The position numbers and the translations under genes were made by a program. The notes beneath the pieces were generated by a model, which was given only the letters and a program-made list of their open reading frames with translations, ran no database searches and was not told the DNA's origin. 34,265 nt of DNA from Nanobdellota archaeon (GTDB taxonomy: Archaea > Aenigmatarchaeota > Aenigmatarchaeia > Aenigmatarchaeales > SZUA-1535), in the NCBI GenBank assembly GCA_015661515.1, contig DQVX01000067.1:1-34265 (forward strand), in the 5' to 3' direction. Positions 29,150 through 34,088 of the stretch are shown one piece after another. How positions within the stretch are numbered: the first letter of the stretch is position 1; each line of letters starts with the position of its first letter.

Positions 29150-30031
29150 TTAATTTCTTAAAAGTTTTATAAAATCTTTTTTGGTTTTTACTTCTTCTAA
29201 ATCTTTCTTAGAAATTATTGGTATTTTACATTCTTTTCTATAATCTTCTGTTATTACAGCACCGCTTAATCCTAAGAATTCAACAAATTCAGCAAATTTT
29301 TTGTATCTATAGCTTATTTTTCTTTTATCTTGCTCTATATCTGAAATTATTATTTCTTTTTCTTTTGCAGAAACATCAAATGGAGCATGATATGTGAAAT
29401 ATGTTTCAAATCCTATTTCATTTAGCTTTTTAGCAACAAATTTTTCTAAGCTATCCTTTGCCTTGCCTTTAAATTCATATTTTCTGAAAACATGCGCTTT
29501 ACCACTTACTTTTTTTCCAAGAACTTTTTCTATTTTTTTAACAATTTTTATACTTGCTTTTAGTCTGAATTTTTCATGCATATAAATTGTTTTTGATGAA
29601 ACACCAACAAGATTTGCAAGTTGTTTTTGAGATAATTTATTTTCTATTCTTGCTTTTCTCAAAGCTACAGGATCTATTTCAACATATACTCCTCCTTTTT
29701 GTCTATAAAATTCTGGAAATTCTTTATCCAATATCATTCTAAAAGTTTCAATACACATAGCTGGAATTTGAAATCTTTCATAAATAACTCCAGGCACAAG
29801 TTTTTCATAATTTGTATTGTTACCTATTAAAAATGGATAAGCATCCAAAGCAGATGAAATAGATTGAAGAGAAAGAGCATGCTGCAAAACAAAACTATCA
29901 ATATTTTTTAGAATTTTGATTAACAAAAGTTCATCTTTTTTTCCAGCTATGTCAAAACATCCAGTAGATTCATAAACTTCATAATCTCTTTCTATTAACA
30001 AATTTTTTACAGCTTCTTTAATTTCACGCAT
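29150..30031 (-). CDS. archaeal HTH (XRE/Cro-C1 type) transcriptional regulator, COG1395-like
   Basis: Central HTH KARIENKLSQKQLANLVGVSSKTIYMHEK flanked by N- and C-terminal domains. 293 aa. Confidence 0.7.
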   Translation of the reverse strand: MREIKEAVKNLLIERDYEVYESTGCFDIAGKKDELLLIKILKNIDSFVLQHALSLQSISSALDAYPFLIGNNTNYEKLVPGVIYERFQIPAMCIETFRMILDKEFPEFYRQKGGVYVEIDPVALRKARIENKLSQKQLANLVGVSSKTIYMHEKFRLKASIKIVKKIEKVLGKKVSGKAHVFRKYEFKGKAKDSLEKFVAKKLNEIGFETYFTYHAPFDVSAKEKEIIISDIEQDKRKISYRYKKFAEFVEFLGLSGAVITEDYRKECKIPIISKKDLEEVKTKKDFIKLLRN

Positions 30032-30097
30032 AAAATATTTTTAAACCGTGCAAAACTTAAAAATTTTTAAATTTCTAAATTTTATAATAACTTGGTT

Positions 30098-30239
30098 GGG
30101 CACGTAGCTCAGCCTGGTCAGAGCGCCAGTCTTATATGGCTGGGCTCTGGTAAAGCCTAAGCAAACTGGTGGTCGCCGGTTCAAAAGCAAGGCTAAAAGA
30201 GCAAGAGTTTTTCTGCAGAAATTCCGGCCGTGCCCACCA
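30098..30239 (+). tRNA. tRNA-Ile, anticodon UAU, with two introns (27 nt at 37/38; 37 nt in T-loop at about 59/60); CCA encoded
   Basis: Acceptor GGGCACG/CGTGCCC, D arm GCTC-AGCCTGGTCA-GAGC, anticodon stem CCAGT (30126..30130)/ACTGG (30165..30169), and loop CTTATA|A with TAT at 30133..30135. Intron 30137..30163 forms a canonical bulge-helix-bulge: CTTA/TAAG central helix, bulges TAT and CAA, outer helix GGCT/AGCC. T arm GCCGG (30175..30179)/CCGGC (30224..30228) encloses 44 nt instead of 7. Removing 30186..30222 restores TTCAAAT. Confidence 0.9.
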
Positions 30240-30247
30240 TTCAAAAA

Positions 30248-30253
30248 TTTTTT
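30248..30253 (+). terminator. oligo-T run downstream of tRNA-Ile
   Basis: TTTTTT 9 nt after the encoded CCA. Archaeal termination commonly uses T-runs. Confidence 0.3.
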
Positions 30254-30311
30254 AAACATATTCTTTGCCAATATGGGAAAAGACTAAAAATGTAAAAGCA
30301 CTAAACACAGT

Positions 30312-31103
30312 TTAGATTTCAGCACCTTCTAATGCACGGGAACAAATGCATGTTCTTTTTTCAGGTATTTGCGATATAACTTTTTCCAGAAGCTTTTTAG
30401 TTTTGTTAACATTTTTCTTCATTGTCTCGATTACAAGTTCTGTGCTAACTTTTTCCTCTTCTTCTTTCCACACATCATAATCTGTTACCATTGAAATAGA
30501 AGCATAGCAGATTTCTAGCTCACGTGCTAGTTGAGCTTCTGGAACAAGAGTCATGCCTATTATGTCGGCAAAATTTCTGAACATGAAGGATTCTGCTTTT
30601 GTTGAAAATCTTGGGCCTTCTATGCAGATGTATGTTCCCTTTTCCGAAAAATCAAATCCAAGCTTTTTTGCATTTTCTATGAGAAGATTTCTAAGCTCAG
30701 GACAAAAAGGCTCTGCCATAGTTATATGCACAACTTTTGGACCATTGTAAAATGTATATTCTCTTCTTTTTGTAAAATCTATAAACTGATCAGGAAATAC
30801 AAGCATCCCAGGTTTGAGCTCTTCTTTCAGTGAGCCAACTGCATGTACAGCAATGATTCTTTCAACACCAATTTCTTTCAAAGCCCAGATATTTGCGCGA
30901 TAGTTTACTTTATGAGGTGGTATCTGATGTTTTTCTCCATGTCTCGGAATGAATGCTATTTTTATTCCGTTAGCATCGAAAATAGAAATAGGTGCTGTTG
31001 CTCTTCCATAAGGTGTTACAATATCTATCTTTTCGATGAGATCAAAATTTTCTATATCTACAACCCCTGTCCCGCCTATTATCCCTATTCTGACTTTTTT
31101 CAT
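30312..31103 (-). CDS. mtnP: 5'-methylthioadenosine phosphorylase (PNP family 2)
   Basis: IGIIGGTG N-terminus, then FIPRHGEKHQIPPHKVNYRANIWALKEIGV and MTLVPEAQLARELEICYASISMVTDYD motifs. Confidence 0.88.
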   Translation of the reverse strand: MKKVRIGIIGGTGVVDIENFDLIEKIDIVTPYGRATAPISIFDANGIKIAFIPRHGEKHQIPPHKVNYRANIWALKEIGVERIIAVHAVGSLKEELKPGMLVFPDQFIDFTKRREYTFYNGPKVVHITMAEPFCPELRNLLIENAKKLGFDFSEKGTYICIEGPRFSTKAESFMFRNFADIIGMTLVPEAQLARELEICYASISMVTDYDVWKEEEEKVSTELVIETMKKNVNKTKKLLEKVISQIPEKRTCICSRALEGAEI

Positions 31104-31132
31104 GAATTTATTATTGAATTATAAAATTAAAA

Positions 31133-31144
31133 AATTTTAAAATT
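31133..31144. promoter_or_regulatory. palindromic A/T element AATTTTAAAATT between divergent mtnP and PRTase genes
   Basis: Perfect 12-nt palindrome centred about 25 nt upstream of ATG 31164, which has no SD. Low specificity in A+T-rich DNA. Confidence 0.3.
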
Positions 31145-31163
31145 CTACAACTGAAAATTAATT

Positions 31164-31814
31164 ATGCCTTCAAAATTTAAATGTGAATTTCGTTCATGGG
31201 AAAATATATATACTTTAAGCAGAATTGTTGCAAGAAAAATAAGAGAAAGCAATTGGGAACCAGATGCAATAATAGGCATAACTCGAGGAGGTTGGGTCCC
31301 TGCACGAAACCTTTGCGATTTTCTTGGTGTTAAAGATCTATTCGGTGTAAAAATAGAACATTGGGGAGTTACAGCTACTCCAGATGGTGAAGCAAAATTA
31401 AAGTGGCCTTTGAACGTTGATCTTTCAGGTAAAAAGGTTCTTGTTGTAGATGATATAATAGATACTGGAGAAAGTATGCTCATAGCTATTGAGCACATTA
31501 AAACTCTCAATCCAAAAGAGATAAGAACAGCAGCATTGTTTTATATAAAGGGTAGTAAATTTATTCCAGATTATTTTGCAGAAGAAATAGAATGGAAATG
31601 GATAATATTTCCATGGAATGTTACAGAAGATTTAATAAATCTAATTTCAAATTTTCTTAAGGAGCGAGAAATTGTAGAAATAAGCGAAGTAATAGATGGG
31701 CTTAAAGATTGGTATGATATAGAGCTTACTGAACAACAACTAAAAGAAGTGCTGGAAGAAATGAGAATAAGAAAAATAATAAAAGTAGATGGAAATAAAA
31801 TCACGAAACTCTAA
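31164..31814 (+). CDS. purine phosphoribosyltransferase (COG2236-like) with C-terminal extension of about 60 aa
   Basis: PRPP-binding loop KKVLVVDDIIDTGESM, with ITRGGWVPARNLCD upstream. The C-terminal EREIVEISEVIDGLKDWYDIELTEQQLKEVLEEMRIRKIIKVDGNKITKL looks like a small helical or winged-helix add-on. Confidence 0.8.
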   Translation: MPSKFKCEFRSWENIYTLSRIVARKIRESNWEPDAIIGITRGGWVPARNLCDFLGVKDLFGVKIEHWGVTATPDGEAKLKWPLNVDLSGKKVLVVDDIIDTGESMLIAIEHIKTLNPKEIRTAALFYIKGSKFIPDYFAEEIEWKWIIFPWNVTEDLINLISNFLKEREIVEISEVIDGLKDWYDIELTEQQLKEVLEEMRIRKIIKVDGNKITKL

Positions 31815-31824
31815 TAGGATTAGA

Positions 31825-31946
31825 GGGCCGGTGGTCTAGTGGTATGACGCCTGCTTCACGAGCAGGAGATCGGCGGTTCAAAACAGAAAGAATATTATTT
31901 TTCTTTTACAATGTTTTATTCTTTGAAATTCCGCCCCGGCCCACCA
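31825..31946 (+). tRNA. tRNA-Val, anticodon CAC, with one 47-nt intron in the T-loop (about 59/60); CCA encoded
   Basis: Acceptor GGGCCGG/CCGGCCC. Anticodon arm CCTGC-TTCACGA-GCAGG with CAC at 31857..31859. T arm GGCGG (31872..31876)/CCGCC (31931..31935) encloses 54 nt. Removing 31883..31929 restores TTCAAAT. TTCA (31877..31880) pairs with TGAA (31924..31927), followed by the 3-nt bulge ATT. Confidence 0.88.
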
Positions 31947-31951
31947 TTGAG

Positions 31952-31959
31952 TTTAAATA
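31952..31959 (+). promoter_or_regulatory. TATA box (TTTAAATA) for SRP RNA
   Basis: Matches the archaeal TATA consensus. It lies about 24-31 nt upstream of the first paired base of SRP RNA (31983). Confidence 0.45.
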
Positions 31960-31960
31960 G

Positions 31961-31967
31961 TTTTTTT
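31961..31967 (+). terminator. oligo-T run downstream of tRNA-Val
   Basis: TTTTTTT 15 nt after the encoded CCA. Confidence 0.3.
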
Positions 31968-31982
31968 GACCATAAATTATTT

Positions 31983-32256
31983 GCAGGAGGCTAGGCCGGG
32001 GGGTTGGGGGTCCCCTGTAACCGGAAATCCCCCTTATGCCGGGGCCGAAGCCCGAGGGCGGCTATGTGCTGAAAGGAAGTCCTGCAGGTGAACAATGAAA
32101 TTCCGTCCCGTGGAGTCGTAGCCGTGGCGAACCGGTCAGGCCCGGAAGGGAGCAGCCGTAAGCCACGAGCTACGATGTTCACGGGGGTGCGGAATGGAGG
32201 AAGCCTGCAGGGGCGCTTCCTTTCAGCACATAGTCCACCGAGGGCGCGCCTCCTGC
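31983..32256 (+). ncRNA. signal recognition particle RNA (7S RNA), about 274 nt
   Basis: 5' Alu-domain sequence GGCTAGGCCGGGGGGTTGGGGGTCCCCTGTAACCGGAAA...GCCGGGGCCGAAGCCCGAGGG is typical of archaeal SRP RNA. Helix 8 core is GGTCAGGCCCGGAAGGGAGCAGCC with a GGAA tetraloop at 32144..32147. The termini pair (GCAGGAGGC with GCCTCCTGC). Long helix 5 pairings include 32062..32079 with 32216..32233. G+C-rich island in A+T-rich DNA. Confidence 0.9.
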
Positions 32257-32278
32257 ACTATTAAATGGTGAAATAAAA

Positions 32279-33067
32279 ATGAAAAGACGTAAATATAATC
32301 AAGAAAAGCCACTTTTTTTGTTATTTTCTTTGGTTATGTTTCTTTTAGGATTTTCTTTTGCAAATATGCTTTATACAATAAATAAACTTGAGATGCAAAA
32401 CGTAAAAATAGTCGAGAAAAAAATCCCAATATATATAACAAAAAGCAATTATAATTCAACAACTTTATATTTGCTTGCTGTTGATCAAGAAGGAGAAGGT
32501 GTAGTTATACCACTAAAAGTTGAAGTAAGACCAGGTACAGGAAAAGTTTTAGCAAATATAGAAAACTTACTTTTTTGGATTGATACTCAACATTCACTTC
32601 AGATTGCGAGAGACATAGCAGCAAATATTACTGGAAGAGATCCAGAAAGTTTTGATGTGATATATACTCTTGAGTCGAACGCTTCTATAGTCGGTGGGCC
32701 TTCTGCAGGAGCCGCTTTTGCAATAGCAACAATAGCAGCTTTAAAAAACATAACTTTGAATAACTCTGTTTTAATAACTGGAACTATAAATGAAGATGGA
32801 ACTATAGGAGAGGTTGGCGGAATTTATGAAAAAGCAGAAGCTGCAAAAAAAGCTGGAGCTAAAATTGTTTTAGTACCTCCTGGACAAGCAACAGAAATAA
32901 AACTTGTTCCTGAGGAAAAATGCATTACACGTCCAGGTTTTATTTTTTGTGAAACAATATACAAAAGAAAGAAAATAAATATTTCCGAGAAAATTGGAAT
33001 AGAAATAAAAGAAGTTTCAAATATTTATGAAGCAATGAAATATTTTTTCGGTGAAAGATATGGATAA
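32279..33067 (+). CDS. membrane-anchored Lon-like (S16) serine protease domain protein, COG1750-like
   Basis: N-terminal TM segment, catalytic Ser context IVGGPSAGAAFAIATIAAL, and ITGTINEDGTIGEVGGIYEKAEAAKKAGAKIVLVP carrying the Lys of the Ser-Lys dyad. GGTGA lies 7 nt upstream of the ATG. Confidence 0.8.
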   Translation: MKRRKYNQEKPLFLLFSLVMFLLGFSFANMLYTINKLEMQNVKIVEKKIPIYITKSNYNSTTLYLLAVDQEGEGVVIPLKVEVRPGTGKVLANIENLLFWIDTQHSLQIARDIAANITGRDPESFDVIYTLESNASIVGGPSAGAAFAIATIAALKNITLNNSVLITGTINEDGTIGEVGGIYEKAEAAKKAGAKIVLVPPGQATEIKLVPEEKCITRPGFIFCETIYKRKKINISEKIGIEIKEVSNIYEAMKYFFGERYG

Positions 33068-33650
33068 AAAAGAGCTTCAGGATATAGCAATTTCTGTAAT
33101 AGTACTTTCAGTAGCATTTTTAAATATTATAGGAGATTTTACTTTAGAAAATTTTGTAATAAGTTTATTAATAGTAATTTTTGTATTTGTAGTTCATGAA
33201 TTAGCTCATAGAGGGGTAGCAAAATATTATGGTTTTTCTGCTAAATATGTTGCTTGGCCTTTTGGTTTATTGCTAACTCTTTTGACGAGTTTCGGAAGCT
33301 TTCTTTTAGGTGGTAGCTTTCTATTTGCTGCACCAGGTGCAGTACAAATTTCTCCTTATTCAGATAAATTTGCATTTCAACTAAGACCTATGACTAAAAA
33401 AGAATATGGTATTATAGCTCTTTCAGGTCCTGCTTCAAATATAGCTGTAGGAGTTATATTCTTTTTACTATTTTTAATTTTTCCTTCTCCAATATACTTC
33501 TTGTACAATATTTCTAAAATTTCATTTTGGTTAGCTTTTTTCAACCTTCTTCCCATTCCACCGCTTGATGGGAGTAAAATTTTAATATGGAATATTAAAA
33601 TATGGTTTATTATAATAGCATTTGCTTTTATTGGCTGGATGGTGATATGA
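33060..33650 (+). CDS. M50-family (site-2 protease-like) membrane metalloprotease
   Basis: HELAHRGVAK (HExxH) in a TM helix and NLLPIPPLDGSKI (NxxPxxxLDG). Start at ATG 33060, 5 nt after GGTGA, overlapping the upstream stop by 8 nt. The track GTG at 33051 is inside the SD. Confidence 0.82.
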   Translation: MDKKELQDIAISVIVLSVAFLNIIGDFTLENFVISLLIVIFVFVVHELAHRGVAKYYGFSAKYVAWPFGLLLTLLTSFGSFLLGGSFLFAAPGAVQISPYSDKFAFQLRPMTKKEYGIIALSGPASNIAVGVIFFLLFLIFPSPIYFLYNISKISFWLAFFNLLPIPPLDGSKILIWNIKIWFIIIAFAFIGWMVI

Positions 33651-34088
33651 ATGTTATTGAGAAAAACAAAAAATATAGCTCTTTTCATAGATGGTCCAAA
33701 CATGATAAGAAAAGAATTTTCTTTTGGGTTAGAAGATATAGTTAAAAAAGCTAAAAAATATGGAAGAATAGTTATAGGAAAAGTTTTTCTTAATCAATTT
33801 GCCCCTGAAAAATTAATAGAAGCTGTTGCTAATCACGGTTTAGAACCTATAATAACCTTAGGTGAGAAAAATGCAACTGATGTTGATGTTGCTTTAGCTG
33901 TACATGCTATGGAAGCTGTGCATGATCCTAAAATAGATATTATTGTTATTGCTACAAGAGATGCTGATTTTACACCTTTACTTCAAAAAATAAAAGAGCA
34001 TGGAAAATTAGCTGTACTAATAGCAGCAAAAGAAGCTTTAGGAACGTCTCTCAAAAAAAGTGCTGACAAAGTAGAGCTTTTGAAGTGA
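33651..34088 (+). CDS. NYN/LabA-like (COG1432) PIN-like domain protein
   Basis: IALFIDGPNM (first Asp motif), DVDVALAV and IVIATRDADFTPLLQKIKEHG motifs. GGTGAT lies 4 nt upstream of the ATG. Confidence 0.78.
   Translation: MLLRKTKNIALFIDGPNMIRKEFSFGLEDIVKKAKKYGRIVIGKVFLNQFAPEKLIEAVANHGLEPIITLGEKNATDVDVALAVHAMEAVHDPKIDIIVIATRDADFTPLLQKIKEHGKLAVLIAAKEALGTSLKKSADKVELLK

Follow-up and report, generated by a model that had tools for sequence, protein, structure and literature searches.

An archaeal SRP RNA without helix 6 in a DPANN-type lineage without detectable SRP19

Whether an archaeal SRP can dispense with both helix 6 of its RNA and the protein SRP19 is the question raised by the locus described here. 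Textbooks and reviews treat the two as universal in Archaea and Eukarya and use them to mark off the bacterial SRP. In canonical archaea, the tetraloop and A-minor contacts of helix 6 clamp helix 8 and pre-organize the SRP54-binding site (PMC2905702). The window, meaning the whole stretch of 34,265 nucleotides that was analyzed, comes from a hydrothermal-vent metagenome and carries an SRP RNA gene that a sequence-only reading had folded by hand and described as lacking this hairpin. The genome to which the window belongs (G000) is a MAG of 664,916 bp in 77 contigs, 92.2% complete and with 0.56% contamination.

Region 31983-32256 of the plus strand is a genuine archaeal SRP (7S) RNA gene. The Rfam model Archaea_SRP (RF01857) matches positions 31984-32255 (+) with 181 bits (E = 6e-43) over model positions 1-317, far above its gathering score of 96.5 bits, and it is the only Rfam family to reach its gathering score within the 34-kb window. 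The unconstrained MFE fold has an energy of -166.9 kcal/mol (z = -10.5 against 200 dinucleotide shuffles) and runs helix 5 continuously into the base of helix 8. The G+C content of the RNA is 64.6%, compared with 30.7% in the flanking genes and 29.9% in the genome as a whole. A structural RNA of 65% G+C in a genome of 30% G+C, together with the vent origin, points to a thermophile in which only the structural RNAs are G+C-rich. The host is accordingly described as a genome-reduced (0.66 Mb), A+T-rich archaeon of DPANN type, and probably a thermophile. Its vent origin, the small genome with G+C-rich structural RNA and intron-bearing tRNA genes, a phylum made up of one class of small genomes, and an SRP RNA architecture shared with MAGs labelled 'Nanoarchaeota archaeon' at NCBI would fit the Nanoarchaeota/Nanobdellota (DPANN) of GTDB. 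The element TTTAAATA occupies the place expected for an archaeal TATA box, for which it is a candidate, and the RNA is presumably expressed with the predicted ends. Scans for sigma-70 promoters and terminators around the gene returned nothing usable, the former being irrelevant for archaea. The features of the gene are collected in Table 1.

Table 1. Positions of the SRP RNA gene and its structural elements in the window (CM, covariance model; A1, the 29-sequence alignment described in the text)
Feature	Position	Strand	Basis or remark
Candidate archaeal TATA box TTTAAATA	31952..31959	+	Centred some 27 nt before the predicted first base, 31983; sequence reading
SRP (7S) RNA gene	31983..32256	+	RF01857 match, MFE z-score, composition
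Helix 1 (terminal), 5' strand	31983..31992	+	Pairs with 32247-32256; CM alignment, MFE fold, covariation (columns 2-9 / 273-280 of A1)
Alu (small) domain	31993..32047	+	CM alignment, posterior '*' throughout; compensatory changes in helices 2-4
Helix 2	31993-31997 with 32043-32047	+	CM alignment
Helix 3	31998-32016	+	CM alignment
UGUAA motif	32016-32020	+	CM alignment
Helix 4	32021-32042	+	CM alignment
Helix 5 (long), 5' strand	32049..32122	+	Pairs with 32169-32246; CM, MFE, covariation
Helix 6 slot	junction 32122..32123	+	0 nt here; about 40 nt in canonical archaeal SRP RNAs
Helix 8 (SRP54 M-domain binding site)	32123..32167	+	CM alignment, covarying stems in 29 sequences
Helix 8 basal stem	32123-32128 with 32162-32167	+	CM alignment
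Helix 8 internal loops GAAC/UAA and AGG/AGCA; GGAA tetraloop	32144-32147 (tetraloop)	+	CM alignment
Helix 5, 3' strand	32169..32246	+	CM, MFE, covariation

The pairings proposed by hand are all present in the sequence. The termini GCAGGAGGC (31983-31991) and GCCTCCTGC (32248-32256) pair exactly, and 18 perfect pairs join 32062-32079 to 32216-32233. Further up helix 5, CCTGCAGG (32081-32088) pairs with 32204-32211, TTCCG (32101-32105) with CGGAA (32190-32194) and CCCGTG (32107-32112) with CACGGG (32180-32185), all exactly, while the last segment, GTCGTAGC (32115-32122) with GCTACGAT (32169-32176), includes one G-U pair. CGTGGC (32123-32128) then pairs exactly with GCCACG (32162-32167), with zero nucleotides after 32122 on the 5' strand, and leads to the GGAA apex, found where it had been placed. 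The RNA thus shows a full-length score above the gathering threshold, Alu helices 2-4 with the UGUNR motif, and a helix 8 that carries the SRP54-binding loops and ends in a GRRA tetraloop. It has no helix 6 hairpin with a GNAR tetraloop ahead of helix 8, where the 5' strand of helix 5 ends, and is consequently classed as a variant of RF01857 and not as a typical member.

The gap is sharply defined. At 32122/32123, the covariance model has 40 consensus positions to which the RNA contributes 0 residues, so that nothing of the helix 6 block remains. The MFE fold agrees, and the alignment places no hairpin anywhere in 32090-32125, the interval in which the sequence-only reading had suggested looking for one. 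Apart from a single bulged A on the 3' side (A32168), the junction strands contain no unpaired nucleotides. Helix 5 stacks straight onto helix 8, and where a three-way junction would be expected there is one continuous helix 5/helix 8 stack. In nine canonical outgroups aligned to the same model, helix 6 is aligned in full with a GGAG-type (GNAR) loop, as a GNAR-capped insertion of 40-42 nt that maps to window positions 32114-32127. Their SRP RNAs measure 306-325 nt, compared with 272-274 nt here, which bears out the earlier impression of a shortened RNA.

Loss of the hairpin during assembly can be dismissed, as Logan contigs bridge 32122/32123. In two hydrothermal-vent metagenome runs, these contigs cover 31825-32161 with 0 differences and cross the junction without insertion; the flanks are also present in Logan contigs of a second, older vent study. 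Some DNA runs contained apparent joints skipping 66-105 nt, which proved to be SRP RNAs of other organisms with the same conserved ends. The sole RNA run (X12) yielded a contig of 193 nt that is about 93% identical over 31998-32131 and then diverges, being either the RNA of a relative or a chimera. It provides no expression evidence for the SRP RNA gene of the window.

The same architecture recurs among relatives. In the order to which the window belongs, the RF01857 search found an SRP RNA in 31 of 41 genomes, and 28 of the 30 full-length RNAs are 268-286 nt long with 0 residues at the junction. An alignment (A1) was assembled from 29 sequences of 265-276 nt, comprising this order and two hot-spring MAGs named 'Nanoarchaeota archaeon' at NCBI. 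RNAalifold predicts 93 consensus pairs for it, 82 of which carry at least one compensatory double change. Many double changes fall in helix 5 (columns 121-144 / 191-218), and compensatory pairs are found both at the former three-way junction (columns 136-144 / 191-199) and in the stem at the foot of helix 8 (columns 146-150 / 185-189). None of the 29 sequences departs from the GGAA tetraloop, from AGCA or from the UAA on the 3' strand of the asymmetric loop, and the AGG/AGCA and GAAC/UAA internal loops are unchanged across the clade.

These data also bear on the possibility that helix 6 is provided in trans or joined on after transcription, from a split or processed RNA, so that the mature RNA would be canonical. 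Unusual RNA processing would not be out of place in this genome, where tRNA genes with non-canonical introns adjoin the SRP RNA, and precedents may be seen in the rearranged and circularized SRP RNA of Thermoproteus (PMC4731332) and, by analogy, in split tRNA genes. However, the junction strands are continuous and covary as one helix in the 29 sequences, no bulge-helix-bulge or splice-like site is found there, and the genome contains a single RF01857 match. A helix 6 provided in trans would, moreover, have no ligand where SRP19 is missing. This explanation is scarcely credible.

Absence of helix 6 extends to the entire phylum as sampled, which a single gene could not have shown. The phylum consists of a single class, with genomes of 0.4-2 Mb. 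In a sample of 151 genomes, all of that class, an SRP RNA was found in 141 at E <= 0.001. Judged by length, 120 of the 141 lack helix 6: 120 RNAs are no longer than 289 nt, another 20 range from 304 to 399 nt, and the last one is cut off by the end of its contig. The score exceeds 96.5 bits in 127 genomes. The other 14 of the 141, being short of 40 model positions, do not reach the gathering threshold, and routine annotation consequently misses the SRP RNA gene in those genomes. The RNA represents a true structural variant of a universal ribonucleoprotein, and one that its whole lineage shares.

The twenty longer RNAs require separate consideration, since they might have retained the hairpin. 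Canonical helix 6 was found in none of those examined (L031 and 19 others). Two RNAs of 306 nt each from the order of the window (genus g10; L030:136-441 and L031:1501-1806) were rejected as helix 6 holders, their hairpin lying about 24 nt upstream of the site. This hairpin, of 33 nt, branches off close to the 5e region, on the 5' strand of helix 5, and is conserved in both (stem GCCGUG/CGCGGC, loop CGAAG or CGAAA); the covariance model fits it onto the helix 6 columns only by force, with many non-canonical pairs. Nineteen longer RNAs (304-399 nt) from other parts of the phylum were likewise rejected, their insertions being located in the Alu loops, at the apex of helix 8 or 3' of helix 8. In one group, large insertions occupy the loops of Alu helices 3 and 4. 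SRP19 was not found in the genomes of the lineages with longer RNAs.

A single RNA, that of genome G250 (L174), has a hairpin exactly at the helix 5/helix 8 junction. It comprises 41 nt with a 16-nt loop and no GNAR motif, and it is accompanied by a second clean insertion of about 30 nt at the apex of helix 8. The SRP RNA of its congener G249 (L171:1501-1773) is nearly identical and lacks both insertions, which marks the junction hairpin of G250 as a recent gain. Comparison of the two sequences suggests a discrete, recent acquisition of expansion hairpins. In some lineages of the phylum, hairpins have sporadically grown again at the junction or close to it, which shows how variable the S domain is.

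Whether SRP19 is absent together with its RNA site was addressed at the protein level. The sequence-only reading had pointed to a genome search for SRP19, and no such gene is detectable in G000: the Pfam model PF01922 gives no match even at E <= 10. This model is imperfectly sensitive. It recovers SRP19 in all eight named non-DPANN archaea (58-81 bits), and a Sulfolobales MAG scored 63 bits, but the built-in control missed Sulfolobus acidocaldarius. For this reason, a custom, more sensitive SRP19 profile was made from eight sequences (Archaeoglobaceae, Sulfolobales, Bathyarchaeia, Thermoplasmata, DHVE2, Methanoperedens, Methanobrevibacter and Methanospirillum). When it was run against 9178 six-frame ORFs of G000 with all HMMER filters off (--max), the best match had E = 0.11, which is noise. 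That match, of 37 aa on contig C43, is off-frame within the 3' end of rpoA'' (RNA polymerase A''), and the next candidate (E = 0.19; ORF 33651-34088) is a clear NYN-domain protein (84.7 bits).

The same absence extends to relatives. SRP19 was found in none of the 41 genomes of the order, in none of the 274 genomes of the phylum that are at least 80% complete, and in none of 41 phylum genomes around one named Nanoarchaeota MAG; the lone 'hit' in the 274-genome search (E = 0.01) is full of stop codons. As a positive control, the same tool and threshold found SRP19 above the curated cut-off in 59 of 61 genomes of the canonical archaeal phylum that holds the Bathyarchaeia MAG. Because G000 is a MAG with about 8% of the markers missing, the case for absence in this particular genome leans partly on the phylum-wide pattern.

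A divergent or very short SRP19 might nevertheless be present and bind helix 8 or another part of the RNA. DPANN proteins evolve fast, and the failure of the six-frame PF01922 control on Sulfolobus acidocaldarius shows that a true SRP19 can be overlooked. Against this stand the physical absence of helix 6, the main docking site, the noise-level result of the filter-free custom profile, and the contrast between 0 in 274 plus 41 genomes and 59 of 61 in a canonical phylum. No conserved small protein gene lies beside the SRP RNA. A hidden SRP19 is accordingly regarded as very improbable.

The remaining core of the particle is present. SRP54 of G000 (439 aa, contig C71) contains the N, G and M domains, with 117.5 bits for the SRP_SPB domain and 216.7 bits for the GTPase domain. 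The RNA-binding motif of its M domain, SRIKRIAKGSGT, is intact; the 439-aa ORF shows RIAKGSG. FtsY (319 aa) matches the SRP54 GTPase domain with 246 bits. Of the protein genes expected for a canonical archaeal SRP, only that of SRP19 is not found.

Taken together, the most likely interpretation, to which a probability of about 85% is assigned, is a functional SRP RNA of a DPANN-type lineage that lacks both helix 6 and SRP19, in a particle made up only of SRP54 and RNA. The SRP would probably be a two-component one, SRP54 plus an Alu-bearing RNA, with a Bacillus-like build. In such a particle, the M domain of SRP54 would make direct contact with the internal loops of helix 8, in the way Ffh binds bacterial 4.5S/6S RNA, and the SRP54-RNA complex would then engage FtsY at the membrane. 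The SRP54 site may be pre-organized by the lengthened coaxial stack of helices 5 and 8, or SRP54 may do this on its own. Published work makes this biochemically plausible: archaeal SRP RNA binds SRP54 without SRP19 (PMC2905702, the 2010 review of Zwieb and Bhuiyan; PMC6098224 agrees), and Haloferax volcanii tolerates deletion of SRP19, whose importance there is diminished (PMC2905702; PMC6098224 agrees).

A different composition would result if a non-homologous protein had replaced SRP19 and steadied helix 8 or the helix 5/8 stack, giving a particle with two proteins. SRP RNAs do recruit additional proteins; HBsu, for example, is recruited to the Alu domain of the B. subtilis SRP. Within the archaea, the SRP RNA of Sulfolobales also binds L7Ae at a k-turn in helix 5 (PMC5539422), so that extra recruits are possible. 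Nothing in the present data points to such a protein. The only widely conserved neighbor of the RNA gene is a 262-aa membrane Lon_C protein (26 of 38 loci), an unlikely RNA chaperone, and reconstitutions show archaeal SRP54 binding without a helper (PMC2905702). A replacement protein is therefore considered quite unlikely, and the particle of SRP54 and RNA alone remains the preferred interpretation.

Comparison with known SRPs places the RNA more precisely. With canonical archaeal SRP RNAs (RF01857) it has in common the terminal helix 1, the UGUAA motif and Alu helices 2-4, and the long helix 5; its helix 8 likewise carries the GGAA tetraloop together with the AGCA and asymmetric-loop motifs. 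Canonical examples are Methanocaldococcus jannaschii, Archaeoglobus fulgidus and Sulfolobus solfataricus, for which S-domain structures include 1LNG, 2V3C and 3KTW (PMC2905702). The differences lie in the approximately 40-nt GNAR-capped helix 6 with its three-way junction, where the window RNA has 0 nt, and in SRP19, which is part of the canonical particle but missing from the genome of the window.

The sequence-only reading had likened the RNA to the Bacillus type, and the architecture upholds this: Alu helices 2-4 and UGUAA align at high posterior probability, and a single continuous hairpin, ending in the GGAA-capped helix 8, makes up the S domain. Bacillus-type SRP RNA (6S/scRNA, about 270 nt; Bacteria_large_SRP, clan CL00003) has a similar length and the same combination of an Alu domain with one long hairpin ending in helix 8 and no helix 6. 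It also works without SRP19, with SRP54/Ffh as the single protein on the S domain, as is presumed for the window particle. On the other hand, the window RNA scores best with the archaeal model, overlapping lower-scoring matches of CL00003 having been set aside, and it has the archaeal helix 1 in a host with archaeal SRP54 and FtsY, whose relatives are archaea with SRP RNAs of archaeal type. The resemblance is one of presumed convergence by loss and not of membership. HBsu-type binding to the Alu domain is not to be expected for the window RNA. The E. coli-type 4.5S RNA shares an S domain consisting of a single helix 8-capped hairpin, to which the M domain binds helper-free, as it presumably does here, but it has no Alu domain and lacks most of helix 5, both of which the window RNA keeps.

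Origin by loss is presumed in this comparison. Alternatively, an SRP without helix 6 and SRP19 could be the ancestral archaeal state, kept by a deep-branching DPANN lineage, in which case no reductive loss would have taken place. This is unlikely, although its consequences would be considerable: SRP19 and helix 6 would have arisen later, on the branch that gave rise to eukaryotes and the remaining Archaea, and the architecture of the S domain would offer a discrete character for rooting the archaeal tree.

Beyond marker lists that touch on it incidentally, an archaeal SRP without helix 6 and SRP19 has hardly been described in print. A 2010 survey reported SRP19 'in all archaea subgroups' then known, coexisting with helix 6, in a table without a DPANN lineage (PMC2905702). 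PF01922 is listed among the CheckM markers absent from all 152 Woesearchaeota genomes of one study (PMC8421398) and from Parvarchaeales and Jingweiarchaeales in another (PMC10134863). These lists agree with the 0 of 274 obtained here. In both, the accession appears in the genome-quality methods, where SRP19 is not named, SRP RNA is not considered, and no interpretation is given. Within the library searched, queries on SRP19 or SRP RNA in DPANN, Nanoarchaeum and Woesearchaeota found no description of helix 6 loss, and none linked PF01922 absence to SRP RNA or reported an archaeal SRP RNA without helix 6; a paper on RNA processing in N. equitans makes no mention of SRP.

The existence of a species-rich archaeal phylum without either element means that nature, and not just a Haloferax knockout, can do without the SRP19/helix 6 module. 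Structural and biochemical work thereby gains a naturally occurring minimal archaeal SRP, presumably consisting of SRP54 and an Alu-bearing RNA. For completeness estimates of DPANN genomes, PF01922 is unfit as a universal marker.

Several further observations concern the RNAs and the genes around them. In the order of the window, one RNA (L013) carries a 21-nt insertion in the loop of helix 3. Elsewhere in the phylum, several families have a helix 8 apical insertion of 32-54 nt right after GGA (L174, L176, L177, L178 and L179; also L184, L185 and L188), in the format CAGG..GGA[insert]G..AGCA. It would form an extended arm in place of the tetraloop that normally contacts the receptor complex. 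In L180, L183, L189, L191 and L192, an extra hairpin lies 3' of helix 8; the resulting order h5-h8-hX-h5 is the mirror image of the canonical h5-h6-h8-h5, and the hairpin of L191 is GAAA-capped.

Directly upstream of the SRP RNA, at 31825-31946 (+), lies a tRNA-Val(CAC)-like gene with an encoded CCA and approximately 47 extra A+T-rich nucleotides within the T-loop region. ARAGORN reports no tRNA over 29900-32300, and the Rfam tRNA model stays below its gathering score across the window; intron-bearing tRNAs of this kind would consequently escape standard annotation. On the other side, at 32279-33067 (+) and directly beside the SRP RNA, is the gene of the Lon_C (S16 protease) domain protein, a predicted membrane protein of 262 aa. 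The 26 of 38 loci that share this neighborhood are spread across the order and the class (L002-L031, L165-L173). In the window, the Lon_C gene is followed by an M50 peptidase gene (33051-33650) and then by that of the NYN-domain protein (33651-34088).
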